From contig OZ316893.1 in NCBI GenBank assembly GCA_973895155.1, positions 7,092,963 to 7,156,962 of the forward strand: a DNA stretch of 64,000 nucleotides, given 5' to 3'. This document shows, piece by piece, positions 13,505 to 38,172 of this stretch. The first letter of the stretch is position 1, and each line of letters starts with the position of its first letter. The notes under the pieces are model-generated. The model had not been told where the DNA came from and made no database searches. It saw nothing but the letters and a program-made list of their open reading frames with translations. A program made the translations under genes and the position numbers. This DNA is from Marsupella aquatica (taxonomy: Eukaryota; Plantae; Marchantiophyta).

Positions 13505-13836
13505 TGTTAAGGATTGCTCTTAGTCTTGTGACTCAAAGGTTACGGCACTTAGGCTAACCATAGTTAGGGTCTTAGCTGAGGTTAGGTTAGTCGTGTGTGA
13601 CCTTGTATATACCAGGGCTAGTGTAAGTCGCTGGTTAGTGGTGCTTACTCATTGTAACGGAGCAACTTGAGGAAGAGGGAGAACATGTGTGTTTGTTTAC
13701 TCTTGAAGTAAAGCTTGAGTGTTCGTGTGGACGTAGCCTTGGAGAAAAGGTGAACCACGTAGAGATTGTGTCGACTACGTGTGCATGGAATAAGTCATGG
13801 TTGTATGGTCGTTGCGAATAACGTCTTAGTTCAACA
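13505..13836 (+). repeat. Copia A 5' LTR
   Basis: Direct repeat of 34644-34975, followed by the PBS. Confidence 0.95.
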
Positions 13837-13838
13837 AT

Positions 13839-13850
13839 TGGTATTAGAGC
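13839..13850 (+). promoter_or_regulatory. Primer-binding site (initiator tRNA-Met type) of Copia A
   Basis: tggtattagagc versus canonical tggtatcagagc, 2 nt after the LTR end. Confidence 0.88.
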
Positions 13851-14840
13851 AAGCCTGGGAGGTGACGTTGAGGTGATCAAAATTTTCGTGACGTGTTGGT
13901 GACGGTTTTTCCAGCGGTTAGAGTCAGTGGATTTTACGGAGTTTCGTCGCATGAAACTTGGAGGTGTTGGGCTCAACGGATAGATCGGGGCAAGGGCTAT
14001 CTAACGGTGTAAAGAAATCTTTGAACGGAGTTTGTGGTGCGAAAGAATTCATGTTTCCATCGTTCTGGATTTTTTATGATTCGTGTTTTACGGTTTTCTT
14101 TGACGGTTCTTTCGGGGGGGACCTGAGATCGTTTACTCAACGGTGTGAGATTTGCGATGGACGAGGGTGATGTCATGCCGAGGGACAGTGCCTCTTATGC
14201 ACATCAGCATGTCCCTCGCCTGCCCGCTAGGTATGTAGTTAGGGCTAGTGTACTACCTGAGTTAGCGACATGTTCTTGTAGCAAGTCTGAGCCGTTCTTG
14301 AAGCAAATGTGTTTGTTAGTGTGACGCCAGGACTTTGCTTGCTTAGGGCATGTCTTTCTTTGTGGGTTTTTCAGTTCTTCCTGAATCGCTGTGAGACAGA
14401 GTTTTTCAGAGGCTGCTCGTCGGTTCCGTACACGGAATTCACACAGTGATTCGTTAGATACTCCCGGCCGATCTTGGCATCTCGCCGGTTTTCAATTCAA
14501 TTTCAGTACGTTTGTTTCTATCACGCCTTTTATTCAAGAAGAACTCTGATGAGGGAAAAAAGATCGGAGACGCTGTGCTTCTCAATTGCTCGAGATAATT
14601 GACATTTTTCCGTTGATGCCGGTGCAATTTCTATGGAAAAACGTTGAGCGATGGGGTGGAAGTTATGGCTTGTGTGTATACACTTAAGTATATACACTTA
14701 AGTCAAACAGGCCCCCCCTCCCTCTTTTCCTTCGCGCTTTGCTTTCAGGGTTTTTCATTTCCGGCCGCTACCAACTGCTGTTTCAGCGCCTGCCATGACC
14801 TTTTTTTGGACCGTTTTTCGGTGTTCCCCGGCCAATTTCC

Positions 14841-14951
14841 GTCGCGAGCTGTTCCCCGGCCGCGACCCCTTTTTCTTTACTCGGCCTGCCGTCGCGAGCT
14901 GTTCCCCGGCCGCGACCCCTTTTTCTTTACTCGGCCTGCCGTCGCGAGCTG
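14841..14951. repeat. 50-bp perfect tandem duplication
   Basis: gtcgcgagctgttccccggccgcgacccctttttctttactcggcctgcc twice, plus a partial third copy. Confidence 0.9.
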
Positions 14952-15050
14952 CTTCTGGTCCGGCAGCTACCCTGTCGGAGTGCTTGTGTATACACACATT
15001 CGGGGCCCATCAATGCCCCTGGGCTCGCTCCTTTCACTCCGCCTTACGCA

Positions 15051-15451
15051 CATAGGGCATTGTGCCCTGGTCTTAATAGAGTTGTTGGTAGGAGGGGGAG
15101 CCGAGCACGAGGCAGCGCGAGGCGAGGAGGGGGCACGAAGCCCTATGAGGAATTAAAGAGGGGGAGGGGAGTTAAGTCGACTCCCTTCTCGGGAGTACAT
15201 ACGACTCCCTCCTCGGGAGTTTCTGCCAGGGGCACAAGGCCCTATGAGGGATTTAAAGCCAGGAGGAGGGGAGCGAGAGTGCAAGGAGTGGGCACGAGGC
15301 CCTATGCTGCAATAAAAGGAGGCAAGGAGGGGGAGCGAGAGTGCCAGGAGAGGGCACAAGGCCCTAAGCTACATTAAAGGAGGGGAGGGGAGTTCAATTC
15401 GAACTCCCTCACACGGGAGTACTTAGGCCTGCCAGGGCACGAAGCCCCAAG
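15051..15451 (+). repeat. Left subterminal array of the 17-bp motif GGGCACAAGGCCCTATG
   Basis: One reverse copy at 15051, then forward copies at 15131, 15230, 15290, 15352 and 15435, mostly followed by TTAAA and a G-rich tract. Confidence 0.85.
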
Positions 15452-16244
15452 GAGGCTTCGGGAGCTCATAAGGAGGGGGGAGGGGGGTATAAAGCCCTAT
15501 GCACAGGGCTCATTTCTTTTTCTTCGCCTCACTCTTCCCATTTTCTTTTCGCCTTTTTCGGCTTGTCTCGTTTTTTTCGCTGCACGACGATCGACCTGTT
15601 TCCATCTCTCGGGTCCACATCGGGCTGATGTGTATACACTTCAGATCCTATGTCCCACTTGGCCCGATTTTCTTTTCCTGCTGACGCGCGCCTCTTTGGT
15701 TTTCCTTTTCCTACCAGTTTTTGGGTCCACATAGGGGCCCGATGTATACACTTAAGGGAGGGCCACTTCTAGTTTCTTTTCCCGGATTTCTTTATTGCCG
15801 CCAACATTAGGCCTTTCCCGCGTTTTTAAGGGGCTTTTCTTTGCCGACAATTTTTCTTTGTGACCGTTTTTCTGTGTGTTTACACATTCAACACATTGCT
15901 GCCTTGCACCGTTTGTTTCCTTTGTGGGTTTCATTTCCTAGCCTTGGGGCTGCCACTTCTTTTTCTTGTCAGTTTCTTTCCCATTGGCACCCCAAGTGAG
16001 CATGCAGCATGTCAGCAGAGGAGCCGACTCGTAGCAGCTCATTGCCACCAACACCCAGGTACCACTTGCGGAGTGATCCACGACCGTTGGTGCCAATTTC
16101 ATTGGAATCTCAGCAATTTCGACGACGTCCGCAGACAGCAGCAGCACCCACACCACGCAATCCTCCTGCTACATTTGGCGGTCGCTTCACCACTACTCCG
16201 AAGCCTGCTATCACTGTTGGGTATTTACTCTTACGTCTAGGTTA

Positions 16245-16358
16245 GGTATGACGTGGTTGGTACAACAACGTGGGTTGGTACAACTACGTGGTTAGGTACA
16301 ACTACGTGATTAGGTACAACTATGTGGTTAGGTACAACTACGTGGTTAGGTACAACTA
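16245..16358 (+). repeat. 18-bp tandem array with ACGTG(G) cores in the Copia B LTR U3
   Basis: About six copies of ggtacaactacgtggtta. The identical array is at ~20679-20792. Confidence 0.85.
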
Positions 16359-16577
16359 AGTTGCACACTATATCATAAGAGGCATGTGTGCTTGGAGAGG
16401 TAGAACCAAGGCTCATTGTTATGGAGCCACTTGAGAGATAGGGAGAGCTTACACTGTGGAGACTCGGTATAGCCGACGGGCTTAGAGTTCAGTAAAGCTC
16501 TCTTGTGTGTTCCCGTGGACGTAGTCTCAAGGAGGTGAACCACGTATCTCTTGTGTCGACTATTGTGCGTTGGATGG

Positions 16578-19500
16578 AGCAAGTATCACCGCAAGGAGTT
16601 GTCAAACCGGCTCTACACTTCCTACAAACTGATGAGTTTCAGGATGAAGGAATCTGGTACAAAGTTGCAAGACCATGTGGATGCTTTCAACGACATGGTC
16701 GTTGACTTGAAAAAACCTTGGAGAGACTTTGAATGATGAGACGAAGGCTCTGCAGCTTCTTAGTTCATTGCCTCCATCTTACCAGTCCCTATCACGAGTG
16801 TTGTTGCATCGTGATAGGGATACCATTTCATACAATGACGTGGTAAGTTCTCTGCTTAGTGATGATCTTTAGCAGAAGATGCACATCACGTCATAGCCTT
16901 CATCATCTGGTGTTGCCCTCAATGTTAACCGTGGGAGGAGTATGCAACGACCAACTGGGGACCGTAGAACCCAGTTTAGATCTAAATCCAGATCTAAGTC
17001 CAAGGGTAAATCCCCTCAGAGGAGGCAGGTGACATGTTGGAAGTGCAACCAAGTTGGACACTTCAAGCGAGACTGTAAGGGAAAGGCAGCGGAAACTTCA
17101 TCGGCAAATGTGGCTAGGGCTGATGGAGAAGCTGATTTACTCAATGATGAGTATGTTTTATGAAGCCGGGGGTATGCCCTGTGCACGTCATCTAGGAGAG
17201 CAGATGATGTGTGGATTCTTGATTGTGCTTGCTCTTTTCATATTTGTTACATTCGTGAGTTTTTCAGTTCTTACTCTGTTTCAAACGGTTCAATTCTGAT
17301 GGGAAATGATCACTCCTGTCAAATTGAGGGAATTGGGTCTGTGAAGATTCAAATGTTTGATGGCGCTGTGCGCACAATGTCCGGAGTCAGGTATGTATCT
17401 GGCATGCGTAAGAATCTGATTTCACTCAGTGTGTTGGATTCAAATGGTCATCAATGGAGCGTTATTGATGGTGAACTTCAAGTCAGGTCGGGAGAGACAG
17501 TGATTTTAAAGGGAAGTAGACAAAAGAATTTGTATGTGTTACAGGGCAATACTGTATGTGGAGAGGCCAATGTAACCAAGTCTCATGAGGAGATGACTCA
17601 ACTGTGGCATTCACGACTAGGCCACATGACTGAGAAGGGTTTGGCTATCTTACGAAAGAATGGACTCATTTCTGATTTGCAATCTTGTAAATTAGAGTTT
17701 TGTGAGCATTGCATTCTTGGAAAGCAGCATCGTCGTGCTTTTGGTGTTGGAACTCATCGTTCCAAAGCGGTTCTTGAGTACATACATAGTGACGTGTGGG
17801 GTCCATCCTCGACTCCCTCACACTCTGGAAAGTTGTACTATGTATCATTTATTGATGATTACTCAAGATTTGTGTGGATTTATTTCATGACGCATAAGTC
17901 TGATGTCTTGTCCATTTTTAAGAAGTGGAAGGCCTAGGTGGAGAATCAGACTGGAAACAAGATCAAGTGTTTGGATACAAGGGTGAAGAGTCTGAGGTCA
18001 GACAACGGCGGGGAGTACACTTCAATGGAATTTGAAGAGTACTGTTCAGAATAGGGGATAACTCGCCATCTCACCACAGTTTATACTCCGCAGCAGAATG
18101 GTGTCGTTGAGAGGCTCAATCGGACACTATTGGAGCGGTCACGGAGTATGTTGAGCCAATCAGGTTTACCACAAGAATTTTGGGCAGAAGCTGTCAATAC
18201 CGCAGCTTATTTGGTAAATCTTTCTCCTTCTAGTGCTATCAATTTCAAAACGCCGTTTGAGATGCGCTATAAGCGGCAAGCAGACTATCATGGCTTGGTA
18301 GTTTTTGGAAGTGATGCATATGCTCTCACACCGAAGCATAATAGGACCAAGTTGGATCCTACCTCCAAGAAATGTGTTTTTCTTGGGTACCAGAGTGGTG
18401 TGAAAGCCTATAGGCTATTGGATCCTATTGCCTGTAATCTCATTGTCAGTAGGGATGTTTCCTTCAATGAATCCAGATTATTGAAGGAGGGGGAGAATAC
18501 TCATGTCTCCCGTACTGACAAAGGAAAATATCTTATCCCAGATCTCGTTGAGGGGGAGATTGGTTATGAGGTGCATGACCGGAGAGAAGGAGTTGCTCCA
18601 ATTATGGAGCTGGTTCCTGTGCCAGAGGAACCAGAGGAGTTTGTTGATGCTGGTGAGCAGCAAGTGGATGTTGGTGAGCAGCAAGTGGATGCTGTTGAGC
18701 TTCAAATTGTACCAGCACACGCAGATCAACCGGAGTCATCGGCTAGAAGAACATCTGGTCGCACTGTACGCGCTCCACCAAGGTATGGACAGTGGATTGA
18801 TTCATCTCAACTGCAAGAGGATGATTTTGCAAGTGATGATGAGGGTGATGCGTTAATTTTGGAAGAAGGGGAACCTTCTTCATTTCATGAGGCAAGTGCT
18901 TCAAAGGAGAAGCAGAAGTGGACTGCAACAATGCAAACGGAGATGCAGTCACTAAAGGACAACAAAACTTGGGAGCTTGTTAAGCTGCCTAAGGGTCAGC
19001 AAGTGATGGACAGCAAGTGGATTTACAAGCTGAAGGATAATTCCATAGGAGGTGGATCAAAGGTCTACAAGGCTAGGTTGGTAGCAAAGGGATTCACACA
19101 AGAGAAAGGTGTGGATTACAATGAGGTCTTCTCACCAGTTGCTAAGTACTCTACAATACGACTATTATGTGTACTTGTTGTAATGTTTGGTCTGCTGCTA
19201 GATCAAATAGATGTTGTCACAGCTTTCCTCTATGGCACATTGGAAGAGGTGATCTTCATGAGACAACCGCTAGGTTTTGTGAAGAGAGGACAGGAGGAAT
19301 TGGTTTGCAGATTGCTGAAATCCTTGTATGGGTTGAAGCAGTCATCAAGATAGTGGAACAAGCGGTTTGACGATTGGATTCGGTCACAAGGTTTTCACAG
19401 AAGTGTATTTGACCCTTTGTGTGTATTTGAAACCGGTAAAGAATGTTATCTTTGGGTTCATTGTTTTAGTACTTTATGTGGATGATATGCTAATTGCAGC

Positions 19501-20458
19501 CAAGGATAGGTCTGAGATTGTTAAGCTCAAGGCACTACTTAGTGCAGAGTTTAAGATGAAGGACTTAGGGCCAGCTAAGAGGATTTTGGGTATGGAGATC
19601 ACTAGGGACTTGGAGGCTGGCAAGCTATGGTTGACGCAGAGCAGTTATGCGAGGAAGGTAATTGCAAGGTTCAACATGGGGAATAGCAAGCCAGTAAGTA
19701 CCCCGTTGGCTCCACACTTCAAGTTATCATCAGCGTTCTATCCTACGGATGACACAGAGAAGGGGTTGATGTCAAAGGTTCCGTATGACAAGGCAGTGGG
19801 GAGTCTCATGTATTTGATGACTTGCACTAGACCTGATCTTGCCATGACTATGGGCAAGGTAAGCAGGTACATGTCGAATCCAGGGAAGGTACACTGAGAA
19901 GCAGTGAAGTGGATTATCAGGTACTTGAAAGGTACCATGGATCATGGTCTTTTATTTGATGCGAATGCAAAGAATGCTAAATCATTGATTGGCTATGTTG
20001 ATTCTGACTATGGACAAGATTTGGACCGAAGGAGATCAACAACAGGATACGTGTTCACACTTGGCGGTGGATGCATAAGTTGGAGATCTACTTTGCAGAA
20101 GTGTATTGCTCAGTCTACTACAGAAGCGGAGTATGTTGCAGCTACGGAAGCAGCAAAGGAAGCGATTTGGTTGGATAGACTTATCACTGAAATGGGATTG
20201 CCACAGGGGAATGTGAAGCTCCATTGTGATAGTCAAAGTGCGCTCCACCTTGCTGTGAACCAGGTGATGGACAACAGAGTGAAGCACATTGACGTCAGGT
20301 ACCATTTTATCAGGCAGGCTGTGTCTGATAATTTGTTTGAGCTAGTCAAGATTGATGGTAAACTCAACCCGGCTGACGCATTTACCAAAGTGATTCCTTT
20401 GGCGAGTTTCTCTAGACACCGTGACGTATTGCAGGTTTTGCAATTGCATCACAAGTAG
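16578..20458 (+). pseudogene. Copia B gag-pol (gag remnant, PR, INT, RT, RNase H)
   Basis: CWKCNQVGHFKRDC, WILDCAC, WHSRLGH..CEHC, HSDVWGP, YKARLVAKG, YVDD, STTEAEY. Several stops and one frameshift near 19415. Confidence 0.93.
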
Positions 20459-20648
20459 AGTTTTCTTAACATTCATTGTAATTACTGATATATGCTCTTC
20501 CTCATTCCTATGTATTAGGCTACGGCTTAGTTCTGGTTTGCTCTAGTTAGAGAGGGAAACCGGTTTGGTTTTTGTCCAGAACTTCCCGCTGAGGGATCAT
20601 ATACATTGGCAGTATTACTCTCCCCTAGACCAGAGTCAAGGGGAAGAT

Positions 20649-21051
20649 TGTTGGGTATTTACTCTTACGTCTAGGTTAGGTATGACGTGGTTGGTACAAC
20701 AACGTGGGTTGGTACAACTACGTGGTTAGGTACAACTACGTGATTAGGTACAACTATGTGGTTAGGTACAACTACGTGGTTAGGTACAACTAAGTTGCAC
20801 ACTATATCATAAGAGGCATGTGTGCTTGGAGAGGTAGAACCAAGGCTCATTGTTATGGAGCCACTTGAGAGATAGAAAGAGCTTACACTGTGGAGACTCG
20901 GTATAGCCGACGGGCTTAGAGTTCAGTAAAGCTCTCTTGTGTATTCCCGTGGACGTAGCCTCAAGGAGGTGAACCACGTATCTCTTGTGTCGACTATTGT
21001 GCGTTGGATGGTTCATGGGCTTGCCGTTGCGATTGTCGTCTATGCTCAACA
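20649..21051 (+). repeat. Copia B 3' LTR
   Basis: Follows the PPT, ends caaca, followed by the TSD. Confidence 0.95.
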
Positions 21052-23969
21052 ATCACTTCGTTGCCATTTACCCCTTCTGCATCAGTGGTTGTTCCTGCTT
21101 CACCGACATACAGCATGGATGCCAGCCACTCATCTGGCCGCATTGAGCGCTTCAGCGAGCGGCCAGGCACTGTCTCTTTACGTGAGTTCAAATCCACTTT
21201 CTACACTGTCGTTTACGAATTGGAGTTGAAGTACGGCAGCAATTTCACAAATGCGTTTGCATTTAAGCAGCTAGCCAGGTATGTACACCATGAGGCTTTA
21301 GATGTGTATGAGCAGCACTCTCAACGGCTGCTTGCTGTCACACAGTTGCCTAACCCTACCTATGCCAGTGCAATTGCGGCAACTTCACAATTGGCCTTAC
21401 AAAATGCCATTGCAGCCCATGCTGCTGCTCCTGCCACTTCCCCTCCTACTCCAGTTCCTACCACTGCGCCAGTTACTCCCACTGTCTTGGCACAGGCTAC
21501 ATCAGGCATTTCTCCCACCATTGATTCTCTTGCCTTTGCTGATCCAGTGGCTGAGTTTTTCCAGGTTCTTGAATTGGAATTCCCAATCAAGAGTGCTGAC
21601 AAAATCATGCAGTTGGCGACCTTTGTGAGGCAGCGTGATGAAACATTGAAGATGATGTATTGCCGACTTCTCAAGCTGAAGGAGGACACCCAGAGCATCA
21701 CTGACTTGGAAGCTGCTCATCGTTATCTTCGCGCATTGGAGGGCACACCAGCTCTCCATTCACAAGTATTGCAGCAAGTATTCTTAGAGTTTGGGGATAG
21801 CTACACACTGCTCAATGTCTATGACACTACTGAGAAACTTGAGTTGGCCCATGCACATTATGAGGCCAGTATTGCGCGTCCACCGCGATCCAGGTACCAG
21901 GCTGCTGCCCCTCCACTGGCCACTCTTTCTCGTGTGCCACAGTATGGTTCCAAGACCAAGCCAGCACATGCTGCTTTCATGCTGCCATCCTACAACTACT
22001 GTGGTAACCCCAATCACAAGGCTAATGAGTGTGATATTGTTGCTGAGGACCTGTCTTATGATTTTTGCGGAAAAGTGGGTCACTTGGAGGTAGTTTGTTT
22101 TGCCAAATTCCCAGAGAGGAAGCAGCTACGACAGCAGGCCCCTCATCCTGCTCCTGCTTCCACTCCCCCCCCAGCTAGGAGGGCTCCTACTGCATCCACT
22201 GCTCCTCCTTCCAGTGGCAAAGCACCCGGTGCTAACAAATTGCCCAAGCAGCCACAGAAGCAACCAGCTCAGAAGGAGGCTCACAATGCACAGGCAACTC
22301 AACTCCAGTCTCTGACTCATGAGATTGAGTCCTTACGTGCCCAACTTGCCAACATCAAAGGCAAGTCCACTGCCTCTGCTGGTCCTTCTCAACCGGCTGG
22401 TCACGTGCAACCCATCCTTGGCCCAGGCACCGCTGATAGTTCAGCACCTCTACCCCACTCTTTCTATGGCTTACCATTTGATGCTCATATGGGTGAGTGT
22501 GTGCTGTCCTCTGCTACACAGCCTGGCCTTACAGCAGAATTTTCAGATTCATTCTGCCCTTCCTATTTTGCTTACCAGCAGGCCAGTGCTGCCTCCCGTA
22601 TTGCTCCCACCCGCCGCATTGTACAGGCTGATGGTCTTGCTGCTGGTCCTATGACTAGAGCCAGGGAACTCGGGCTGTCATGCCCCAATCTTTTCAGCCC
22701 CTCACACTTGCTGAAGAGCGGACCTTGTTGGCGAGGGGGGAGGGAGCTGCAGCTACATCCATTCCACCACCAGGTGCTGCTGACATTTCACAGGGAGTTG
22801 TTTCTCTTGAGGTACTTGAGCATTTCACCTCCGGTATGGCACAAAGGATTCTTACAACTCCACTTTTTAGTTGCCATGATTTATAGCTGGATGCTAGAGC
22901 TATCATCAGAGCGCTAGAGGGCTCACTGCATTCTTCATCAGCCCCTATGACACCGGTTTTGGAGGTCCAATCTCATGTATATACTGGACCTTCTTCTTCT
23001 TCATTGCATGCTTCCACTAGTTTGGCTATCCCAGTACCGATTTCCAATGGTAGAGATGACAGTATTGTTGCAGATTGTGTGACCAGAGCTACACTGGATT
23101 CTGGTCATGCTGCTTCATCTTTCTTGGCTATGCTGTTGAGTGGGAAGACCGTGGACACTAACTCCCTTCACAAGGTACCTCATCATTTGCCAAAAGTGGT
23201 GCCTAGTGACAGGACTTTAGTTTCCACCACCATTGCCATTGTTGACAATAGGAATTCAGCAGTCAAGTTGGAGGGTCACACTCCTCAGGTGGTCATGCTA
23301 GACATAGGCGCTCAACCAGTAATCTTGGGCATTCAGTTTGCCAAGAAGATGGGACTGTTGACTGATCATTTACAGCAATCCAGGTGGCACATTCGGACTG
23401 CTAGTGGCACTGTGGAGGATGTGCTGGGTGAGAGTTCTACTTTACTTACTCTCACTTTTAATGGAGGTACAGATCAGGAACTGCATTTCCCAGTCAGATG
23501 TTTCGTTACCAATGCCACTACGTATGATGTGCTCATTGGCCAAGAGGCTTTGTTCCCACCAGGTTTTACCATTGACAATTGGCATGAGCATGCATACTAC
23601 AGAGTTGATTGGCATACGGATGGCTCACACTTGGGATACATTCCACTTGATTTGCATGGTGCCCATACCCCTATGGCTCACCACTCTGTGTTGAAAGCAG
23701 TGCACATAGCTACCTATGTCAATCACCCATTGCAAGATTGGATTGAGGAGGATGACGATGAGGTGGCTGCTGCATATGCTGCTGCACGTATAGCAGCACT
23801 TTCCAGCAACGTGGATCATCAACCAGAGGTGGTACAACGGCTCCAAGCAGCCCATGGACCTTTGGTGGCTGCATTGCACAAGTTTGAAGACCTTGGGCAG
23901 CACAATGGACAGCCAATAGCCCCAATCTTGAGCGCACCAGTTAAATGGACTCCTCCTTCAGATGGCCTT

Positions 23970-24900
23970 ACATTGCTTGAGCTTTTTGGTGGCATTTCTA
24001 TAGGCCTGGAAGCTCTCCTACAGTCTGGCATGGTGGTGAAGCAGTACATCTATGTGGACATTGATCCAAGTGCAAGGCAAGTGGCTGAATCCCGTCTGCT
24101 GGAATTTTCCGAGCGATTTCCCCAGCAGTTTCCACATAGTGCATGGAAGTCTGCATTTTCTTTCTTCCCTCCAGACATCCAGCTTGTCCAGCACCGACAC
24201 TTAACCCTTCTTGGCTCCCTTGATTTGATCATAGCTGGTTGGGAATGCCAAGGGTTTTCAGCTGCTGGTCACGGTGTTGGACTGCATGATTCTCGTTCTG
24301 GCCTTTTCACAGCATTGGTTCAGATTCTCACCTGGGCTCAATCCCTTTATCCTGCTGTTGGTTATATCATTGAGAATACTCCATCTCAGTTTGACCAGCG
24401 TCCACAGGTCAAAGAGGATTTTAGTGTGGTCCAACACTACTTGGGACCACCCCTTCTCATTGATGCAGTGCACTGTGGTTCTTATGCACATCGTCTTTGT
24501 AACTTTTGGACTAACCTTGCACCACCTTCCTTGTTGGAGTTAGCTCTTCACCACACATCCAGGGACACTAACCTCACAGTGGACCAGATTTTGGATCCTG
24601 ACAGTTCTTGCCAACCGGTTACACGGCAAGAGCCAGCACCTTGGTATCCAGCTAATACCATTGGACAGCCCCGTGCTGCTTGGCCTACATTTGTGTCCTT
24701 TCCAGGTGCACATGCTTTTCAGGGTGATGGTCCTGGCCTGGTTTATCGACATTCTACCGGTACATGGGATGAACCTAGTCCTGAGGAGAGAGAACGGGCT
24801 ATGGGCTTCCAACCCGGTACTACAGGTCACACCAAAATCACCAGGCTGGCCAGGACTGCTTTACTTGGCAAGGTAATGGATCTTAATGCTCTCACTTGGC
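23970..24900 (+). other. C5 cytosine DNA methyltransferase domain inside pol
   Basis: Motifs in canonical order: I LLELFGGISIG, II YVDID, IV DLIIAGWECQGFS, VI IIENT, VIII HRLCNFWTN, IX ERERAMGF, X LLGKVMD. Confidence 0.9.
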
Positions 24901-27900
24901 TTCTGGTCACTTGCATCCTTTTTCAGATGTACATTCATCCAGCATCAGGAGTGCCAGCCCTACCACTCCATGGTGCTACTACATGGCATCCAGACCAGGT
25001 GCACTTACCTCTGTCCAACACTCACCACTTCAGTCCAAGTGTTGGGGGGGAGGAGGTCCCTTGTAATGTGGCTGACATTATTTCTGAGTTTCATGGTGTG
25101 GAGCAGACCAGAGCAACAAATACAGCAGGCCTTGGAGAGGCCTCATCACCTTATCAGCAGCATGCTAGCAGCTTGGATAGTGGAGAGGCTGGCACTTCTG
25201 GCTCTTCAAGCATGAGTACATCAGGTCCTATTCCTAGTGTTGCCAACTACACATTCATCATGGGCAACCACCTGAGTAAAAGACAGAAGGACCAGCTGCT
25301 GAATTTTCTCCTCAAGCATGAGAATGTGTTTGCTTTCTCTATGAAGGACTTGGGTAAGTGCAAGACTATGCAGTTCTCCATTGAGTTGGCTGATGAAACA
25401 CCTATCTTCAGGCGGAGACACCGTTTGAGTAAGCATGAGTGGCAGCTGGTGGATGAGAGATGCCAAGAGCTCTATGAAGCTAGTCTTATTCAGCCATCTA
25501 CATCAGATTTTGCAGCAGCTACAGTGATGCCAGCAAAGAAGGATTCCAGTGGATTGTGGACAGAGAAGCGCATGTGTGGGGACTACAGGCCACTGAACCT
25601 GGTCACACCCCAGGATAGGTATCCCATGCCACGGCCAGAGGAGCTATTTGACAGCATTGGAGACTTAGACATCTTCACTCTTGTGGATCTAAGGCAAGGC
25701 TTTAACCAGATTTTGCTGCTTGCAAAGGACCGCAAGAAAACAACTTTCCATGGTAGGAACCAACTATGGGAGTGGTTGGTGATGCCATTTGGCTTGAAGA
25801 ATGCGCCCATATTCTTTCAAAGAGTCATGGACCAGGTTCTTCAAGGTGTTGAGTTTATGAAATGCTACATTGATGATGTGTTGGTCCACAGCAAAGGATT
25901 TGACCAGCATCTACTTGACCTTGAGGAGCTATTCATGAGGCTTAAGAAGGTGAATCTAAAGATACACCCCAAGAAGTGTGAATTTGCTGTCAGATCAGTA
26001 GTATACCTTGGGCACCGCATTCTTCCAAATGGAACCATGGCTCACTGGGCCAAGGTGGTATCCATCTTGGAAATGCCCACTCCTACCGATGTTCACACTT
26101 TGAGGAGTTTTATTGGGTTGTGCAATTACTACCGGATCTACATCAAAGATTTCAGTACCATTGCACACCCATTGTATGCTTTGTTGAAAAAGAATGTGAC
26201 TTGGACATGGAGTACAGATGCTGAGGCAGCATTTGCCACTTTGAAGGAGAAGCTCTCAGAATACCCGATGTTGAGAAGACCTAATTTCAGCAAGGTCTTT
26301 GTGCTACACACAGATTGGAGTGCCCTTGGGATTGGTGCCATTCTGGGCCAGCATGATGAGGAAGGTAAAGAGTACGTCATTGCCTATGCATCTAGGAGCA
26401 ACAATCAGGCAGAGAGTCATTATTCTTCTTATGAGGGTGAATGCCTTGCTGTTGTGTGGGCTGTCATACATTATAGGCCCTACCTCTATGGGACCAGGTT
26501 TGTTCTCTACACCGACCACCAGCCCTTGAAGTGGTTGATGACCAATGACAAGCTTACTGGCAAGCTTGCTCGTTGGGCGCTCATACTCTAGGAGTATGAT
26601 TTTGAGGTAATTCATAGGCCTGGTGTGACACATCAGAATGCTGACACTATGTCCCGCAACCCTTTGATTACCTCTGATGATTCCTCAGATGCACGACAAG
26701 ATTTTGACCAGATTTCCATCCTGCCTACATTTCATGCATCGACCTATCTTGCTTTGCTGCCATGCTATGTTGTTGACCAACCTGTGGTGGACATATGGGA
26801 GGACAGCAACACTCTGAGATTTCTGCAGCATGGGGAGTTACCCACACATGTTACTGCTGCCCAGAGAGACCGAATTCAGCAAAGGTCCAAGCGCTACTTG
26901 TGGAAGGGAGATCATCTCGTGCGCTGCTTGCCAGACAGGGAAGTGGTGGTTCCACCCATTCATGAGAGGGTTGGCCTTATCCGTAAGGTACATTCTGAGC
27001 TTGGTCATTTTGGCGTTAAGAGGACTTACAGCCTCTTGGTCCCTCATTATCATTGGAGAGGCATGCATGGCCAGGTTCGAGATGTTATTGCCCGGTGTGA
27101 ACAGTGTGATAGGGTGAGGACTTCTTTCACATCTCGGCAACCCACACTTCATCCACTCCCTATTCAGGGCATGTTTTATCGCTGGTCATGTGATTTGGCT
27201 GGAGAATTACCCCTCACATCTCGGGGTAATCTCTACATCATGATCATGATAGAGCATTTCTCCAAGTGGATAGAACTTGTGGCATTGCCGGATAAGACCT
27301 CCTGTAGCACCAGCCAGGCATTCCTGCAACAAGTTCTCAGCCGCTTTGGAGCTTGTGCAGAATGTCTCACTGACCAGGGCTCAGAGTTTAGAGGAGAGTT
27401 CCAGGAGCTGCTTGATCAGGCCCTCATTGATCATCGCCGGACATCACGAGATCACCCACAGGCAGATGGCTTGGCAGAGCGCATGGTTCAGACATGCAAG
27501 AAGGGTCTCCGGAAGATCTGCCTCACCAAAAACAAGGAGGATTGGGACCTGGCCTTACCCTACATTGCCATGGGGTATAGGATGTCCAGACATGCATCAC
27601 TGTCTAACTTTTCTCCCTACTTCTTGTTGTTTGGTCGTCACCCAGTTCCACCTTCTGCTATCGCTGCTCACATGCTTCAGGTGGTGGACTTGGATTCAGC
27701 TATGACTTGGTCTGATGTGATCTCTGAGAGGGCTACCCTATTCAGGAGGGTTATGCCCATGGCCATGGAGAATTTGGCCATTGCACAGCACAGGGACACA
27801 CTGCGTTATGCACACACACGAGGGGGCACTTTTCAGCCCAAGGTCAGGAAGTTTGATGTGGGAGATTTTGTGTACTTGCAGCGGCAAGCTAACGACACCC

Positions 27901-28085
27901 TGGACACCTCTACCAGTCGAACTATTCTCAGGGTTAAAGCTATTCGACCGTCTGGAGTGCTAGAGTTACAAGGGGCAGATGGGCGCACAATTGCTGACAA
28001 TGCCAAGAATTGCGCCCCTTGTCATCTGCCCAACCTAGATCCCACCATTGTGACTTCTACTTGGATTCCACTTGTGGACTACCCT

Positions 28086-28220
28086 TGCAAGGTGTGTTTG
28101 CGAATTGATGATGCTGACCAGATGCTGTTGTGTGACAATTGCAATGGAGGGTACCATCTTTTCTACCTTCGGCCTGAACTTACCCAGGTGCTAGAAGGGT
28201 TATGGTTTTGCCCTTCTTGT
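28086..28220 (+). other. PHD finger at the integrase C-terminus
   Basis: CKVC..DDADQMLLCDNCNGGYHLFYL.PEL....EGLWFCPSC gives C4HC3 spacing, with one ligand Cys read as Tyr. Confidence 0.9.
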
Positions 28221-29013
28221 GCTCCACGTGCTACCTGAATTTTCTTCAGCTCTCCTTTTGGCTGTGGTCTGGGGGGGATACAGAGGTTTACACCTCCACT
28301 ACATACATACCACTTCATTTGTTTTTTCTTGGCACTTGTGAATGTGATTGGACTTTTTCTATGCATGTTGGTTGCTAGCAGCTTGCACATATGCCTTGCC
28401 GGTGACTTGTATGTTTTTGATACACTATGGCTACGATACTATATGTCACGACAGTGACGCATACTATAGCTCAAATCGTAGATCGGGCAAAGTTGATCGT
28501 TTTGGTAGCTGGTTTGCTATCAAAGGTGTAGCGAGTGCGACGTTCCGAGCAAAAGAGCCGTTCTGAGTTTTTGACCGGCTATGAAGGTCTTCTTTTGACT
28601 GAAGTGGGGTTTCTTGTCGTTACGTTCGACTCAGAGGAAGATTCGTGAAGTACTATGACTTAAAGGAGAGATCGCGGCGAGGTGGTCATTTTGAGTCCGG
28701 GATTGGCACTTAACACGGAGTGAAGGAGTCATGACGGGAAGTTTTTACTCTGCTAGAGTTGCAGACGGCGCCGGTGAAATTTGGAAATATTTCCCGTTGG
28801 TGACGTGCACTTTTCTTGTGTGAAACGACGACATTTTCAGTAAGTAACACGGCAAATTTTTTTTGCGGCAACATTTGTGCGTTTTAAAGGGGTTTTAACC
28901 CCTTATGTGTATACATGTGCACCCACCCCCCCAGGCATACGATAACCCCCCCGGCGCGCGTACAGCGCCATATTCGCGCGCATATACAGTTCCCCCCCCC
29001 TCATTAAAGCCAC

Positions 29014-29292
29014 TTTAGGGCCTTGTGCCCTGGACATCCCCCCCCTCCCCCCTTTCGCTAGCCCTCCTCCCACCTCCTCATTAAAGCCACATAGGGCCTT
29101 GTGCCCTGGACATTCTCCTCCCCTTCCCCCCTCATTAAAGCCACATAGGGCCTTGTGCCCTATTTATTATCTCCCTCCCCTCCCCTCTTTTCTGCACGCC
29201 TCCCCTCCATCATATGGCCTTGTGCCCTAGCATAGGGCCTTGTGAGGCAATTAAAGAGGGGGAGCCAGGCCAGGAGGGCACGCTGCCCTATG
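29014..29292 (-). repeat. Right subterminal array of the same 17-bp motif in inverted orientation
   Basis: CATAGGGCCTTGTGCCC-type copies at 29014, 29090, 29144, 29211 and 29231 (partial), then one forward copy at 29276. Confidence 0.85.
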
Positions 29293-30003
29293 AGCCATTA
29301 AGGCAGAGTACACCCCCTCCCTCCCACCCACGTACGTATCCGCGCAGTACCCCATCCGCGTACTAGCGTACCCCTGGCCCTTAATACACTGTATTTTTTG
29401 AAAAGGGATTCCCCCCCCCTTTAGGGCAATTTTTTCTTCTTTCTCCTCTTTGCTAAGCGGCAACCCGGGCCCGGTGACCCGGCAATTTAACCGCTCTGAC
29501 AGGGGGAACGGCCCCCTGTGAGACCTGCCGCACAATCCAAGGAATATTCTGAAAAAATAGAGAACTATTTTTTGGCCTTTAGTCAAAGATTCCAAGGTCC
29601 GAACGGTAACTTTTTTTGGACCTTTTTTGGCGAGGACGTAGCCACTGAAGCTAGCAACGCGGTGCACCACTTGATTTGCATTTTTGATGACGGGTGGTAC
29701 TTGGAATTTTTCTTATTCCCCGAGGTGGTCAAAACGGGGGAGAATTTTTTGAGTTTTACCCACCCCGATCGAAATGTGAAAAAGTTTTTCATCGGAACTC
29801 GGTTTCAATTTCGGATTTCAGCATTGGCTTGCTAGGCTGGTGGGCTACGTGGCAGTGACAAGTTTCAAGTTTTTTGGAAAGTTGTGAAAAATGATATTTT
29901 TTCATGATTTGGATTTGAGTCAACGGGACGGAAGAAAGGAAAAAGCGACAAAAGGATATAGGGAGCAACAAAGAAATAGCATGTGGAGAATGTCGGGAGG
30001 ATA

Positions 30004-33000
30004 ATGATGGCATCCAAGTTTGGAGGTGTCAAGTTTGAGGTGGAAAAGTATGATGGGCACACGGATTATTTGCTATAGGAGAAGCAGGTTAAGGGAATTC
30101 TTCGTGCTATGGGCCTAGATCATCTACTATCGACTCGGGAGGAGTCTAATAGTGAGGAGGAGATCCCGTTGAGAAATAGAGGCAGGAGCAAGTGATCGTT
30201 GTGAATGCGGTTATGCTGTATCTGAAGCCGCATATCATTAAGAAGTTGGACGACTACGAGGATTGCGTATCCTTATTCAAGGCCCTCAGAGAGAAGTACT
30301 ACCGAGAGGATGCCTCAGATCGGTTGTACAAGAAGTCTCTCTTGATGAGCTTGAGGCTAAAAGAAGGAGGCAAGCTTCGAGATCACTTGGATGAATTCGA
30401 TAGCCTAGCTGTAGATTTATCAAATCTTGGCAAAGGAGTGGAAGATGAAGATAAGGCATTGCTTCTTCTCAGTTTCTTACCCCCATCGTATCAAGGTTTG
30501 AAGCAGGTTCTCTTATATAGAGACCTTAAAACCATTTCATATGATGAGGTGGTAAGCTCTTTGCTGTCAGATGATGCACAGAAGAAACTGGGTCATGCCT
30601 AGACACCATCTTCATCTGGCAGTGCATTGAATGTGAACCGCGGGAGGACTCGACAACGGATGACTGGCGAAAATAGGTTTTTTTCACAAACATACCCCTC
30701 ACGGAATAGAGGCAAGGAGAAGGCTCGGTCTAAGTCTAGATCCAGGTCTAGAGAGAAATCTCTAGAAAGGAAACCAATTATATGCTGGAAATGTAACAAG
30801 CCTGGCCACATAAAACGAGACTGTCGAGTCAAGCAGACTCATCAACCATCAGCGAACGCAGCCACTGATGTTGATATGATTGACTTGCTTGATGATGAAA
30901 TCTTGTGAAGTCCAGATATTGCCCTTTGCATTTCATCCAGTAACAACGGTGATGAATGGATTTTAGATTGTGCCTGTACCTATCATATTTTTTGTATGAA
31001 AGAGTTTTTTACTTCTTACTCAGTATCAACCGGTTCCATGTTGATGGAGAATGATCATCCTTGTCAAATTGTTGGAATTGGATCCGTGAAAATTCGGATG
31101 TTTGATGGAGCTGTGCGAACAGTGAGTAATGTCAGACACATACCTAACATGAAAAAAAACTTGATTTCTCTTGGAATGCTGGAAGCAAATGGATGTCGGT
31201 GGAGTTCTGCTGATGGTATTCTTCAAGTGTCAACCGGAGGCAAGGTTGTCATGAAGGGTAAGCAGCACAGAAATCTATATTTGTTGGAGGGCAATGTGAT
31301 TTGTGAAGAAGCCAATGTAACTAGATCTCAAGGCGAGATGACTCAGTTATGGCACTGCAGATTGGGACACATGAGTGAAAAGGGTTTGGCGGTACTTCAC
31401 AGGAAAGGACTTCTTTCTAATTTGGAATCTACTAAGCTAGATTTTTGTGAACATTGTGTGCTTGGGAAGCAGCACAGGAGAACCTTTGGTGTTGGAACTC
31501 ACAATACCAAAGCTATACTTGAGTATGTACATAGTGATGTGTGGGGTCCAGCCCCAACTCCCTCATTTTCTGGAAAATTGTACTATATCAGGTTCATTGA
31601 TAATTACTCACGGTATGTGTGGATCACATTTCTACACGCCAAGTCTGAATTTTTTGGCACTTTTAAGAAGTGGAAAGCCCAAATTGAGAATCAGACTGGA
31701 TCCAAGGTGAGATATCTGCAATCAGATAACGGCAGGGAGTACAATTCAAGTAAATTTGAACTATATTGTGCAGAGCAAGGGATTACTTGTCATCTCACGA
31801 CAATTTATACTCCTCAATAGAATGGTGTTTGTGAGTGGCTAAACCGAACACTATTGGAGCGATCGAGGAGTATGTTGAGCCAATCAGGTTTACCGCATGA
31901 ATTTTGGGCTGAAGCTATAAATACGGCAACTTATTTGGTAAATCTTTCTCCTTCAAGTGCAATCAATTTCAAGACACCGTTTGAAATGAGCTATGGACGA
32001 CACGCAGACTATCAGGTTTTGAGAGTCTTTGGAAGTGATGCATATGCTCTCACACCTAAGCATAATCGATCTAAACTAGATTCTACTTCCAAGAAGTGTC
32101 TTTTTCTTGGTTATCAACCAGGTGTGAAAGGTTACAGGCTATCTCGGGGGTTTCACTTCCACAAAAATGGCATATCACGTGCGACGAAGGATAGGGTCAT
32201 TTTATTGGTTCTAAGGGAAGACTTAAGAATTTTTGTAGAAGAATAATAGGGTCTTTTAAATTAAATTTTGAGACTTATAAGAACATTAGGGTATTTTTAA
32301 TCCAATTTTTAGAATATTCCAAGAATATTCCAACTTTATAGGGGTTAAAAAATAAAAAAATTTCCTTACATTTTAGGGGGTCCGAGGCCTAAAAACGTCG
32401 TAGGCGATGGGGAGGTCCCCATATAGTGAGACCCTCGAGCAGGCTATCGGATCCAGAAGCTTGTACATTGCTTGTCAGTAGAGATGTATCATTTAATGAA
32501 TCCAGATCATCAAAGGAGGGGGAGAATGCTCAGGCCTCCCGTACTAACAAAGGTAAATCTCCTATCCTGGACCATGTTGTGGGGGAGATTGGTCATGAGA
32601 GTTTTCATGACATAAATGAAGGAGGTGCTCCGAGAATGGAGGTGGTTCCGGTATTGGAACAAGAGGAGCAGGTTTTTGTTGGAATACCTCAAATTCAACC
32701 GACAGAACAAGATCAACCAGAATTATCAGCTAGAAAATCGAGACGTACTACTCGAGCTCCTACAATGTATGGACAATGGACAGATTCATCAAGGTTAGAT
32801 GATGTTGACATTGCACCTGAAGATGATGATAGAGCACTGATCTTGGAAGAAGGAGAACCTTCTTCTTATCATGAGGCGTGCATTTTAGACGAGAAAGATG
32901 AATGGAATGCAGCGATGCAGAGGGAGTTGCAATCTTTAAGTGACAACAGAACATGGGAGCTGGTGCAGCTGCCAAGTGATCAACAAGTGGTGGATAGCAA

Positions 33001-34449
33001 GTGGATTTACAAGCTGAAGGACAACTCTTCAGATGGAGGAGACAAGATATACAAGGCAAGGCTTGTTGCCAAGGGATTCACTCAAGAGAAGGGAGTGGAT
33101 TACAATGAGGTCTTCTCTCCAATTGCCAAGTATTCCATGATATAAATTTTGTGTCAACTTGTTGTGTTTTTTGATCTGGTGTTAGATCAAATGGATGTTG
33201 TTACTGCTTTTCTCTATGGCACCTTGGAAGAACAAATTTTCATGAGGCAACCACTGGGCTTTGTGAAGAAGGGCCAAGAGAGTTTAATTTGCAGGTTGCT
33301 TAAGTCCTTGTATGGATTAAAGCAAGCTCCTCAACAGTGGAACAAGCGGTTTGATGATTTCATGCTTGCAGAAGGATTCACTAGGATGGTGTATGACCCT
33401 TGTGTGTATACGAAATCAATCAAGAATGGTGTGTTTGGTTTGCTCATTCTGGTGCTCTATGTGGATGACATGTTGATTGCGGCTAAGGATCAAACTGAGG
33501 TTGACAAACTCAAAGCAAAATTGAGTTTTGAATTTCGAATGAAGGATCTTGGGAAAGCAAAAAGGATCTTAGGTATGGAGATTACGAGAAACTTTGAAAC
33601 TGGACAATTGTGGCTGAATCAAGGCAAGTATGCTGAAAGGTACTTGCAAGATTCAACATGGAAAATTGTAAGCCAGTAAGTATTCCTTTGGCTCCACATT
33701 TCAAGTTATCATCGGCTTTCTGCCCCACGGATCTAGTGGAGAGAGGCTTGATGACTAAGGTTCCTTATGAGAAGGCAGTGAGCAGTCTAATGTATTTGAT
33801 GACATGTACCAGGCCTGATCTAGCCCTAGCAATGGGCAAAGTGAGTAGATTCATGTCAAATCCAGGGAAGGTACATTGGGAGGCTGTGAAATGGATTATC
33901 AGGTATCTTAAAGGTACAATAGACTATGGTCTGTTGTTTGATAGTAAATCAAACAAAACCAAATCTTTGGTTGGCTATGTAGATTCTGACTATGGAGGCT
34001 GTCTGGAAATAAGGAGGTCAACGACTGCGTATGTGTTTACTCTTGGAGGAGGATGCATAAGTTGGAGATCTACCTTACAGAAGTGTGTATCTCAGTCTAT
34101 TACAAAAGCAGAATATGTTGCAGCATCAGAAGCAGGAAAGGAAGCAATTTGGTTGGATAAGCTGGTCACTGAGATGGGATTGGAGCATGGAAAAATGGCT
34201 CTTCATTGTGACAGCCAGAGTGCGCTTCACCTAGCTATTAACCAGGTGATGGATAGCAGGGTGAAGTGCATTGACATCAGGTACCATTTTATTAGGCAAG
34301 CAATGTCTGATAAAATGTTTGAGCTAGTCAAGATTGATGGAAAACTCAACCTGGCTGATGCTTTTACCAAAGTGATTCCTTGGAGAATTACTCAAGACAC
34401 CGTGCTACTTTGCAGGTTTTGCATTTGCAGCACAAGTAGAATAACTTAA
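30004..34449 (+). pseudogene. Copia A gag-pol
   Basis: MMASKFGGVKFEVEKYDG, CWKCNKPGHIKRDC, WILDCAC, HSDVWGP, YVDD and RNase H motifs. Multiple stops and frameshifts, plus a MITE insertion. Confidence 0.93.
32143..32439. mobile_element. hAT-like MITE in the Copia A integrase region
   Basis: 15-bp TIRs ctcgggggtttcact / agtgagaccctcgag (13/15 match). 8-bp TSD caggctat (32135-32142 / 32440-32447). Absent from the homologous position in Copia B. Confidence 0.88.
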
Positions 34450-34643
34450 CAAGATGTGATTTTTGTATATGATTTACTCAATCCTGTTATGGCTACGGCT
34501 TAATTCTAGTTAACTCTTAGTTAACCTTAAATGGTTTTTAGGGGGACACCTATGGTTTTAGGTGATTGTCTAGAATTTCCCGCTGAGTATCTCATATGGA
34601 TAGCAGAAATTGCAGTCCCCAAGACTAGAGTCAAGAGGGAGTT

Positions 34644-34975
34644 TGTTAAGGATTGCTCTTAGTCTTGTGACTCAAAGGTTACGGCACTTAGGCTAACCAC
34701 AGTTAGGGTCTTAGCTGAGGTTAGGTTAGTCGTGTGTGACCTTGTATATACCAGGGCTAGTGTAAGCCACTGGTTAGTGGTGCTTACTCATTGTAACGGA
34801 GCAACTTGAGGAAGAGGGAGAGCATGTGTGTTTGTTTACTCTTGAAGTAAAGCTTGAGTGTTCGTGTGGACGTAGCCTTGGAGAAGAGGTGAACCACGTA
34901 GAGATTGTGTCGATTACGTGTGCATGGAATAAGTCATGGTTGTATGGTCGTTGCGAATGACGTCTTAGTTCAACA
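34644..34975 (+). repeat. Copia A 3' LTR
   Basis: Direct repeat of 13505-13836, directly after the PPT. Confidence 0.95.
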
Positions 34976-35620
34976 ACCTCGAGAACCCATGACATCCCCA
35001 GACCCAGTTGAGCTCAAGAGGACGTAGCCCTCCTCAAAAGATTTTCAACGCACCCCAAGAAGTCCTCCAATAGACTTCCTGTTGGGAAGATATCGTTGTT
35101 TCCGTTTGGCGCTTTCCCTTAGTGTCGCGACCGCCATGGCTCACGACTTCGGCTCGCCCTTGGCCCCCAGGGAGACACCACTCCCCTCATATATGCTTTT
35201 GGAGACCTGCCACCCCAGACCAATTGTGGTCCCTAAACATTTGGCCTCCAACCCAGATCCTATCGCGCATAGTGGGCGCTACCAACTGGCAACGCCCATA
35301 ACTTTCTCGTTAGGCGTCCGCAAGCGGAGTGCCTTAGCCCGTTGTGATCGGGCCGACCTAGTGCTCATGCCTAGGCCCTCAGGTCTCATTGCCGCTTGGG
35401 GTCTCCAATCGGCCAAACCCGGATCGGGCCCTAACTCACGCCCCAAACATCCGTTGCCCATGGCGTCAACTCCATTGGCCTTGGGCCCAAGAGGAGCTCA
35501 CACTCAAGCCCTCAAAACTCAAAGTCCGTCCGGGGGCCCAAACGGTCGACCTTGAGTCCGGCCCCTTTCCCCTTGACCCGACCAGCTCTCAGCTCGCCTA
35601 AGTCCTTAGTGTGTCTCACC

Positions 35621-38111: not shown

Positions 38112-38172
38112 TCACCCCCTTGGCTCCTTGCCTTCGCTAGTGCCACGTCTCATTGCCCACTAGTCTCCCCGT

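Follow-up and report, generated by a model that had tools for sequence, protein, structure and literature searches.

A land-plant Ty3/Gypsy element of the KnitGypsy-Dnmt3 kind, with a DNMT3-like methyltransferase domain and split terminal repeats

According to the text of de Mendoza et al. 2018 (PMC5890265), KnitGypsy-Dnmt3 of the alga Klebsormidium nitens carries an intronless Dnmt3-like domain in the Pol protein of a Gypsy retrotransposon, with a Ka/Ks ratio below 0.2. The same text reports that SymbioDIRS-Dnmt3 enzymes carry out de novo CG methylation in yeast, and it proposes that such DIRS-borne enzymes, shown to methylate CG, act on complementary DNA (cDNA) from within the particle. The accessible text of two further sources refers to Gypsy-DNMT3 as streptophyte and does not name land plants (PMC12344493; bioRxiv 10.64898/2026.05.21.726589). 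In the literature found, a Gypsy-borne DNMT3 was previously known from one alga, and its role was called unclear. Here we describe an element of this kind in a 64,000-nucleotide stretch of the Marsupella aquatica assembly GCA_973895155.1 (contig OZ316893.1, positions 7,092,963 to 7,156,962 of the forward strand), called the window below, to which all coordinates refer. It is a decayed Ty3/Gypsy copy whose polyprotein runs from gag through protease, DNMT3-like methyltransferase, reverse transcriptase (RT), RNase H and integrase to a PHD finger, and the range of its family is much wider than in the literature found. Our literature search, which did not extend to Repbase, most subscription papers and some supplements, returned no report of the family in land plants, nor of its termini or integration. 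The explanation that we favour for the whole, with confidence only slightly above even, is that in an element of the KnitGypsy-Dnmt3 kind the released methyltransferase would methylate CG sites on the cDNA and the integrase would cut inside the long terminal repeat (LTR).

The element and its methyltransferase domain

A DNMT3-like C5 cytosine methyltransferase domain is encoded at 23940..24920 (like every feature of the element, on the + strand). An earlier note on this DNA, made from the letters alone, had read seven C5 methyltransferase motifs there in order, and all are found: LELFGGI at 23976, VDID at 24054, GWECQGFS at 24237, IENT at 24369, HRLCNFWTN at 24489, ERAMGF at 24792 and LLGK at 24861. 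Its placement of the domain after the protease (LDIGA at 23298) and before RT (YIDD at 25866) also holds, and the Pfam search that it proposed gives DNA_methylase (PF00145) a score of 28.8 bits (E 1e-6), the cut-off being 22. When PDB was searched with the single domain sequence, DNMT3A ranked first (E 4e-5), and a 20-sequence profile scored DNMT3A at 80 bits, DRM at 45-52, M.HhaI at 41 and DNMT2 at 34. An AlphaFold model of the domain (pLDDT 86.5, pTM 0.88) gave only DNMT3A/3B entries among the Foldseek matches listed, and its structural alignments gave Z scores of 24.8 for DNMT3A (root-mean-square deviation 2.9, 263 aligned), 21.0 for M.MpeI, 19.1 for M.HhaI and 16.0 for DNMT1. The DNMT3 affinity suggested by these searches is one of ranked sequence and predicted-fold similarity, not of tree placement with host DNMTs. 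The domain is intronless and non-rearranged within the polyprotein, and motifs I, IV, VI, VIII, IX and X are present family-wide with the catalytic Cys, Glu and Arg, with Glu replacing Pro before the Cys. Pfam gave no match in the element to DUF3444, the companion domain of host DNMT3.

The element as a whole occupies 14171..28453 in a form that we denote A-coding-B, after the two different repeats that bound it, and it is flanked by a 4-bp target site duplication (TSD), GTGA, at 14167..14170 and 28454..28457. Its ends, TGTCATG...CACGACA, recur, allowing for decay, in the 15 metagenome loci that have both ends. The extent first proposed, 22680..28238, was too short: the real element reaches well beyond it and is split by a Copia insertion, and gag, the PHD finger and the termini were located in addition to the pol domains of that first reading. 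Gag, with a degenerate zinc-knuckle region, lies at 21115..22660 and is separated from pol by a frame break near 22650-22710; in the relatives P0152 and P0003 a single open reading frame (ORF) runs across this point. The aspartic protease follows at 23262..23552, with the active site DIG here and DTG in the relatives P0003 and P0036. Downstream of the methyltransferase come RT (25560..26021), RNase H (26208..26588, followed by an in-frame TAG) and a DDE integrase (26955..27875) with an HHCC module, catalytic residues D, D and E in the regions of 27186, 27369 and 27474, and a GPF/Y-like GDFVY at 27861. The Pfam order is thus the Ty3/Gypsy order of protease, RT, RNase H and integrase (H2C2, rve) with the methyltransferase placed after the protease and a PHD finger (28086..28220, 36.8 bits) at the C-terminus. 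No chromodomain was matched by Pfam at the integrase C-terminus, where the PHD finger closes the ORF, and membership in the chromoviruses (Tcn1, Chlamyvir) was rejected on this difference.

Decay, selection and relatives

The window copy is dead. Besides the frame break after gag, its lesions comprise stops at 22884 and 26589, the DIG for DTG in the protease, Cys for the second Arg of motif VIII (codon 24498-24500), and Tyr for one zinc-ligand Cys of the PHD finger, a position that has Cys in 18 and Tyr in 6 of 24 distinct loci. The single reading frame described earlier is accurate in that the seven methyltransferase motifs share it; this frame is not open, however, being interrupted by TAG at 22884-22886 and at 26589-26591, and gag is read in a different one.

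Conservation was assessed through a metagenome scan for the family, in which 320 of 343 candidates were confirmed. The best 80 (58-76% identity) were retained, and 56 distinct loci were left for the methyltransferase counts once near-duplicates had been removed. Domain order in these loci is the same across the domains covered, with internal deletions in some. The retention of the catalytic Cys in a WEC context, noted at first for this copy, proves to be a lineage-wide trait, the Cys and the preceding Glu both being present in 56/56 distinct loci. Motif VI retains its Glu in 51/56 and its Asn in 55/56, and the RxR pattern of motif VIII occurs in 140/150 representatives. The second Arg of motif VIII is found in 37/56 distinct loci, the remainder having His (11), Cys (7) or Pro (1). 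Because Arg is the majority state and the non-Arg loci mostly carry His or Cys, as CpG decay yields, the RLC of the window copy is private CpG decay, in line with the earlier note. The contigs agree with this in three of four runs: the Arg codon stands at essentially all depth in those of runs X1-X3, and in X5 it makes up only a small share.

Most of the metagenome copies are dead too, with a stop inside the mapped methyltransferase codons in 55/57 rows. The ratio of nonsynonymous to synonymous divergence (omega) between the window and the loci is 0.096 for the methyltransferase, 0.054 for RT, 0.067 for integrase and 0.149 for protease, and in the unsaturated pairs L001-L002 and L001-L003 it is about 0.09-0.10. 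Among the mostly dead sister copies it is 0.36 for both methyltransferase and RT. Synonymous divergence is near saturation (8/56 methyltransferase and 21/41 RT pairs are saturated), and a test of shared versus private selection is blurred by recurrent CpG decay. Judged from these comparisons, the methyltransferase domain is under purifying selection, with omega of about 0.1. None of the observations by which the earlier note would have abandoned its methyltransferase was made: the domain has Pfam and fold matches, is family-wide in 320 confirmed loci, and keeps its catalytic residues under purifying selection.

The nearest named relative is from Calypogeia fissa (78% over 327 columns), and other named land-plant relatives are from Sphagnum compactum, S. 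magellanicum and Marchantia polymorpha (five proteins in one search and one in another). Named algal relatives are from Closterium, K. nitens (GAQ93235.1), Haematococcus and Chlamydomonas eustigma. A profile search returned 542 clusters at E 1e-30 or better, and retroelement domains are present in 98 of the best 150. In those 150, the methyltransferase lies after the protease or before RT in 17 and between RT/RNase H and integrase in 81, the position of 52 being unassignable; the two named proteins from chlorophytes have it between RT/RNase H and integrase. The protease-methyltransferase-RT layout forms one group on trees of RT-RNase H (10 rows, support 100) and integrase (6 rows, support 99), for which the chlorophyte-type rows were sampled (25/69 and 25/89). 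The layout with the methyltransferase before the integrase forms one group of 41 rows (support 95) on a quick, unrooted methyltransferase tree that excludes nine near-duplicate long rows and most fragments. The simplest reading of these sequence trees would be one capture of the methyltransferase and then a move within Pol, in either direction. Lineages that are only 35-45% identical share the S-adenosylmethionine-binding FGG loop, the Cys, the Glu-Asn pair and RxR.

The K. nitens protein GAQ93235.1 matches the element at a profile E of 7.5e-135 and pairwise at 1e-59 (30% of 575 amino acids, protease and methyltransferase), and from its layout it would be a copy of KnitGypsy-Dnmt3. Given this homology and the shared layout and repeats, our element does not represent an independent capture in land plants; it is a land-plant member of the KnitGypsy-Dnmt3 kind. 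A recent bacterial or phage origin was considered and rejected: the matches in viral contigs were only weak and partial, with E 6e-11 and 1e-9 at best, and prokaryote genomes gave a best E of 4e-8 in the 7/64 parts scanned. The same scans of viral contigs and those 7/64 parts contained no chlorophyte-type element. In Calypogeia, CAM6101866.1 is an example of the WEC type. Several copies are present in Marchantia polymorpha (e.g. Mp4g09160, of the WPC type), which makes the role of the enzyme addressable in a genetic model plant, and retroelement domains of this type can inflate DNMT counts in bryophyte genomes.

Several other proteins were encountered among the relatives. A series of gag-protease-methyltransferase proteins (P0004-P0009, P0011, P0015, P0016, P0018, P0019, P0021, P0026, P0161-P0165 and P0205), including ones from Marchantia and Klebsormidium, end 8-170 residues past the methyltransferase without RT. 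If a programmed break follows the methyltransferase in such proteins, the enzyme would equal Gag in abundance in those lineages. Two distant methyltransferase relatives contain a PPC motif: P0201, with additional RT, PHD and PF12237 domains, and P0202, with RNase H PF00075. They are possibly DIRS-like elements, one with two methyltransferases. P0062 is a family member labelled as a Candidatus Obscuribacterales metagenome-assembled genome and is likely eukaryotic DNA in a bin.

Split repeats, integration and sequence context

Conventional LTRs were looked for in the window, and none flank the element. It is nevertheless young, since it sits in a Copia element with LTRs identical at 326/333 positions and contains another with LTRs identical at 358/362. 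Copia A (13505..34975, +), older than the Gypsy insertion, holds the Gypsy element in its leader, with an empty-site joint 14134->28459. Copia B (16215..21051, +; TSD ATCAC), younger than the Gypsy insertion, lies inside the 5ˊ leader of the Gypsy element (14534..21114), which is about 1.75 kb without it, as shown by a joint 16209->21052 in other copies. The ends of the Gypsy element include features canonical for this group, namely TG...CA, a 4-bp TSD (range 4-6) and a polypurine tract. However, its structure is not that of a two-LTR Gypsy element, because no direct repeat flanks it and its relatives have the forms A-coding-B and A-coding-B-A-B.

Repeat A (14171..14533), the putative 3ˊ part of U3 plus R and U5, begins with a TG attachment half-site at the same place as the A of the metagenome loci. 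Repeat B (28278..28453), the putative 5ˊ part of U3, terminates in a CA half-site and begins right 3ˊ of the polypurine tract, a G run at 28266..28277; in copies with a second B, that B starts at the identical base. Contig joints for the window family connect B to A (28453/4->14171, with a spacer of AC or GC) and A to B (14533->28278), in addition to the empty site, and the B|A spacer is 2 nt (AC, GC, GT or AT). Within a copy, the paired repeats are homogenised: distances are 0.091 (B) and 0.118 (A), compared with 0.13 and 0.18 between copies, and 0 columns are position-specific. At the end of A lies a predicted primer-binding site (14531..14545) that does not begin with TGG, as a tRNA-type site would, and that is complementary at 13/15 positions to a predicted self-primer at 14373..14387, which may be the transcript 5ˊ end; 2/2000 shuffles reach this complementarity. 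Among the distinct 5ˊ ends of the loci, 22/26 have a self-primer duplex of at least 12/15, located some 30 nt downstream of a TATA box, and two compensatory changes distinguish the duplex of the window from that of the metagenome loci.

The window copy itself is A-coding-B, and A-coding-B-A-B is represented in the family at about 14 distinct metagenome sites and by joints seen in the contigs of four runs. With shared sites merged and three unclear ends set aside, the 3ˊ ends of the loci comprise about 14 B-A-B, 2 B-A with a stub of B, and 8-9 single B. In L029 and L072, nearly all of the last B is gone from the A|B joint onward, with the terminal CGACA kept and, in L029, the TSD as well. A 4-bp TSD is exact in 9 of the 15 loci with both ends, has one mismatch in 4 and is absent in 2 (L050/L057, with a microsatellite in place of an end, were excluded); both integrated forms carry it. 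One family member (L007:5964) starts immediately downstream of the RNase H region of a second member.

We think it quite probable that B+A is the true LTR, that reverse transcription is self-primed as in Tf1/Tj1, and that each B|A junction of the linear cDNA, BA-coding-BA, carries a CA-nn-TG site. The transcript would start inside A with the self-primer, and this stretch would pair with the primer-binding site that closes A. Together, the polypurine tract and the primer site would set the ends of the linear cDNA, leaving the TG and CA used by the integrase at internal positions. Because both A-coding-B and A-coding-B-A-B carry target duplications (13/15 within one mismatch), integrase appears to cut inside the LTR. 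A fairly likely course is that cutting at the left CA-nn-TG site and joining of the free cDNA ends would give A-coding-B-A-B, the ends being joined either before integration, as a two-LTR circle, or afterwards by host end-joining. Cutting at both sites, or in a one-LTR circle, would give A-coding-B, which lacks a 3ˊ R and would be unable to copy itself. Internal-site integration is supported by the homogenised repeat pairs and by the L029/L072 truncations, which begin at the joint and keep the terminus.

Several facts fit this scheme poorly. The form A-B-A-coding-B, which a symmetric circle model would predict, was found at 0/26 distinct 5ˊ ends, 24 of which have over 500 nt of flanking sequence, and one attachment site must therefore be preferred, an extra assumption. 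L054 and L058 have a common 3ˊ flank and a different 2-nt A|B joint, so joint variants may post-date insertion. The form A-coding-B can also be obtained by recombination between B1 and B2, and repeat A of the window has no clear TATA box. The missing form would be accounted for by a mechanism of the PAT/Ngaro type, in which the transcript extends across the last B, the ends are repaired with the internal B|A junction as template, and the A-coding-B of the window is a later B1 x B2 deletion; the repeat order of PAT, Ngaro and VIPER is the same. We regard this mechanism as unlikely, since the last B starts at the base defined by the polypurine tract, the end of A abuts the self-priming site, B1 and B2 have no position-specific differences, the truncations begin at the A|B joint, and a DDE integrase with TSD stands in place of a tyrosine recombinase. 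Under the LTR-internal scheme, the left site would likely be favoured because it becomes double-stranded first.

That order of strand synthesis would explain the asymmetry without methylation, which bears on another proposal, namely that the element's own enzyme, by methylating one of the two identical attachment sites inside the LTRs, steers the cut toward the replication-competent A-coding-B-A-B. CpG is concentrated in the last 45 nt of B (1-6, compared with 0-2 in the other 118-147 nt, in 8 loci), A-B-A-coding-B is absent from the 26 5ˊ ends, and split repeats and a methyltransferase co-occur in both KnitGypsy-Dnmt3 and SymbioDIRS-Dnmt3, as far as the text describing them goes. Against it, VIPER and TATE have split repeats and are described, in the portions of their sources available, with gag, tyrosine recombinase and RT/RNase H only; we rate site marking as very improbable. 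We offer only tentatively the broader view of a large and ancient green-plant DDE-integrase lineage with an LTR-internal attachment site, end-joined or circular cDNA as the normal route, and its own DNMT3-like enzyme methylating the cDNA and possibly choosing the site cut. LTR circles are usually regarded as dead ends for DDE integrases, and internal-site integration, if true, would be an exception. Split termini would also explain why tools that seek two flanking LTRs would overlook the family.

The remainder of the window contains other repeats and genes. GC-rich stretches at about 14670-15780 and 28900-29400, in the Gypsy and Copia A leaders, carry short CATAGGGCC-TGTGCCCT-type repeats and GTGTATACA palindromes; contig depth drops roughly 10- to 40-fold across them, so that they resemble private inserts from an unrecognised non-autonomous element. 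In Copia B, the 5ˊ LTR (16215-16577) lacks its last ~40 bases and the following sequence, whereas 3ˊ LTR and TSD remain intact. A non-coding repeat family is present at 10961-13504, 34976-35620 and 38112-39952 in several inverted copies that are 72-93% alike, one of which holds Copia A. Tandem arrays lie at 35909-36171 and 60128-60664, the first with a 33-nt unit of GGATAGCGGATAC-like blocks, the second longer and degenerate. An expansin gene, apparently intronless (61355-62086, -), a Harbinger/PIF-type DDE_Tnp_4 transposase in pieces (46764-48381, +), and protein kinase gene exons and a DUF1232 match (2953-3769, -, and 54222-54584, -) were also recognised. The expansin gene indicates a streptophyte host, and the nearest named relative of the Gypsy element, together with CG depletion that CHG sites do not share, would point to a bryophyte, most probably a liverwort. 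ORFs of 441 codons (41729-43051, +) and 246 codons (49495-50232, -) had no Pfam match.

Roles of the enzyme and comparison with known systems

In active copies, the protease would likely free the methyltransferase from the polyprotein, and the enzyme would then be carried in the particle with cDNA as its nearest substrate, such that CG sites of new cDNA would likely be methylated. This proposal follows from the position in the polyprotein, the conserved catalytic residues and the DNMT3 fold. From sequence and model, we consider the enzyme probably active in live copies. That it acts on cDNA of the element itself, so that a new copy would arrive bearing the marks of host DNA, is a proposal by analogy to which we give an even chance. 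The coding CpG observed/expected ratio of the element is 0.27, in comparison with 0.43-0.47 in the two neighbouring Copia elements (p 1.5e-5), and there is no CHG loss. This signal is weakened on several counts: the contrast has p 0.038 after codon control, CpG is kept in repeat A (0.87) and the leader (0.75), metagenome copies are not more CG-depleted than their flanks, and host methylation alone could be the cause of the depletion. In the structural model, moreover, the catalytic loop with Glu for the usual Pro (residues 104-110) is of low confidence, and KnitGypsy-Dnmt3 produced no methylation in yeast, although DNMT3B likewise produced none and the text of the study calls the result inconclusive (PMC5890265).

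The yeast result would also suit a domain with little or no catalytic role, retained for example for cDNA binding or protection or for particle shape, with no appreciable methylation. The residue preceding the catalytic Cys is freely variable, the pair being EC in 71, PC in 48 and other in 5 of 124 readable representatives, as such a role would allow. Pseudo-enzymes, however, usually lose their catalytic residues, and here the divergent lineages retain the FGG loop, the Cys, the Glu-Asn pair and RxR alike; we therefore find this role unlikely.

The PHD finger is most similar to those of WSTF, KDM5 PHD1, BAZ2A/B, ATXR5, CHD4 and UHRF1. Fingers of this group (WSTF, KDM5 PHD1, BAZ2, ATXR5, CHD4, UHRF1) are readers of unmethylated lysine 4 of histone H3 (H3K4). 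The finger is thus predicted to read unmethylated H3K4 and may steer insertion into inactive chromatin; the insertion in the leader of another transposon fits such steering, as a single case. The ADD domain of animal DNMT3 is likewise a reader of unmethylated H3K4, and this parallel would favour an active enzyme that an integrase-PHD complex brings to host chromatin as its substrate, whether at the insertion site or elsewhere. The methyltransferase directly precedes the integrase in chlorophyte-type elements, whereas in the lineage of our element RT and RNase H lie between them, and methylated flanks bring the element no evident gain. We consider a host-chromatin substrate still less likely than a non-catalytic role.

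Among described elements, KnitGypsy-Dnmt3 is similar in its Dnmt3-like domain in Gypsy Pol, its purifying selection and its DIRS-like A-coding-B-A-B repeats, as given in the text of PMC5890265, and the order of protease and methyltransferase is the same in K. nitens GAQ93235.1. The host there is an alga and here likely a land plant, the methyltransferases are 36% identical, and WEC in our element corresponds to FPC in GAQ93235.1. The text of that report, its figures aside, contains no mention of TSDs or TG...CA ends, nor of a PHD finger, self-priming or an A-coding-B form. SymbioDIRS-Dnmt3 of Symbiodinium, per the same text, also combines a Dnmt3 in Pol with split repeats, and it is there that CG activity has been shown. 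SymbioDIRS-Dnmt3 and SymbioLINE-Dnmt share with our element a retrotransposon-borne C5 methyltransferase but use tyrosine recombinase or LINE machinery (PMC5890265). EpiLTRs carry such an enzyme as well, theirs being, from the accessible text, sister to DNMT4 and accompanied by DAM and a chromodomain (bioRxiv 10.64898/2026.05.21.726589). Host DNMT3 of non-flowering streptophytes likewise has a DNMT3-type catalytic domain with canonical motif order, together with DUF3444, whereas here the domain is intronless and inside Pol (Yaari et al. 2019, PMC6453930, as far as its accessible text goes).

With respect to repeat layout, our element was rejected as a member of the DIRS order (PAT, Ngaro, VIPER), having an rve integrase and TSD instead of a tyrosine recombinase. 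Tf1, Tj1 and Tcn1 have two ordinary LTRs with terminal attachment sites. According to the available text on them, Tf1/Tj1 and plant Tcn1 resemble our element in a primer-binding site complementary to the 5ˊ end of their own RNA and in a DDE integrase, and chromoviruses have a chromatin reader on the integrase, although in Tcn1 this is a chromodomain rather than a PHD finger and there is no DNMT (PMC4600332, PMC6317226). PAT, Ngaro, VIPER and TATE share the A1-coding-B1-A2-B2 layout and, in the parts of the sources consulted, have a tyrosine recombinase where our element has a DDE integrase, TG...CA ends and a 4-bp TSD (PMC6681497, PMC7192593). Troyka, which has CG...CG ends, a 3-bp TSD and animal hosts (PMC12440569), was rejected as a family assignment given the TG...CA ends and 4-bp TSD here. 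Relative to these systems, what appears to be new, judged from sequence, is a B+A unit acting as the real LTR, the self-priming site and the internal CA-nn-TG attachment site.

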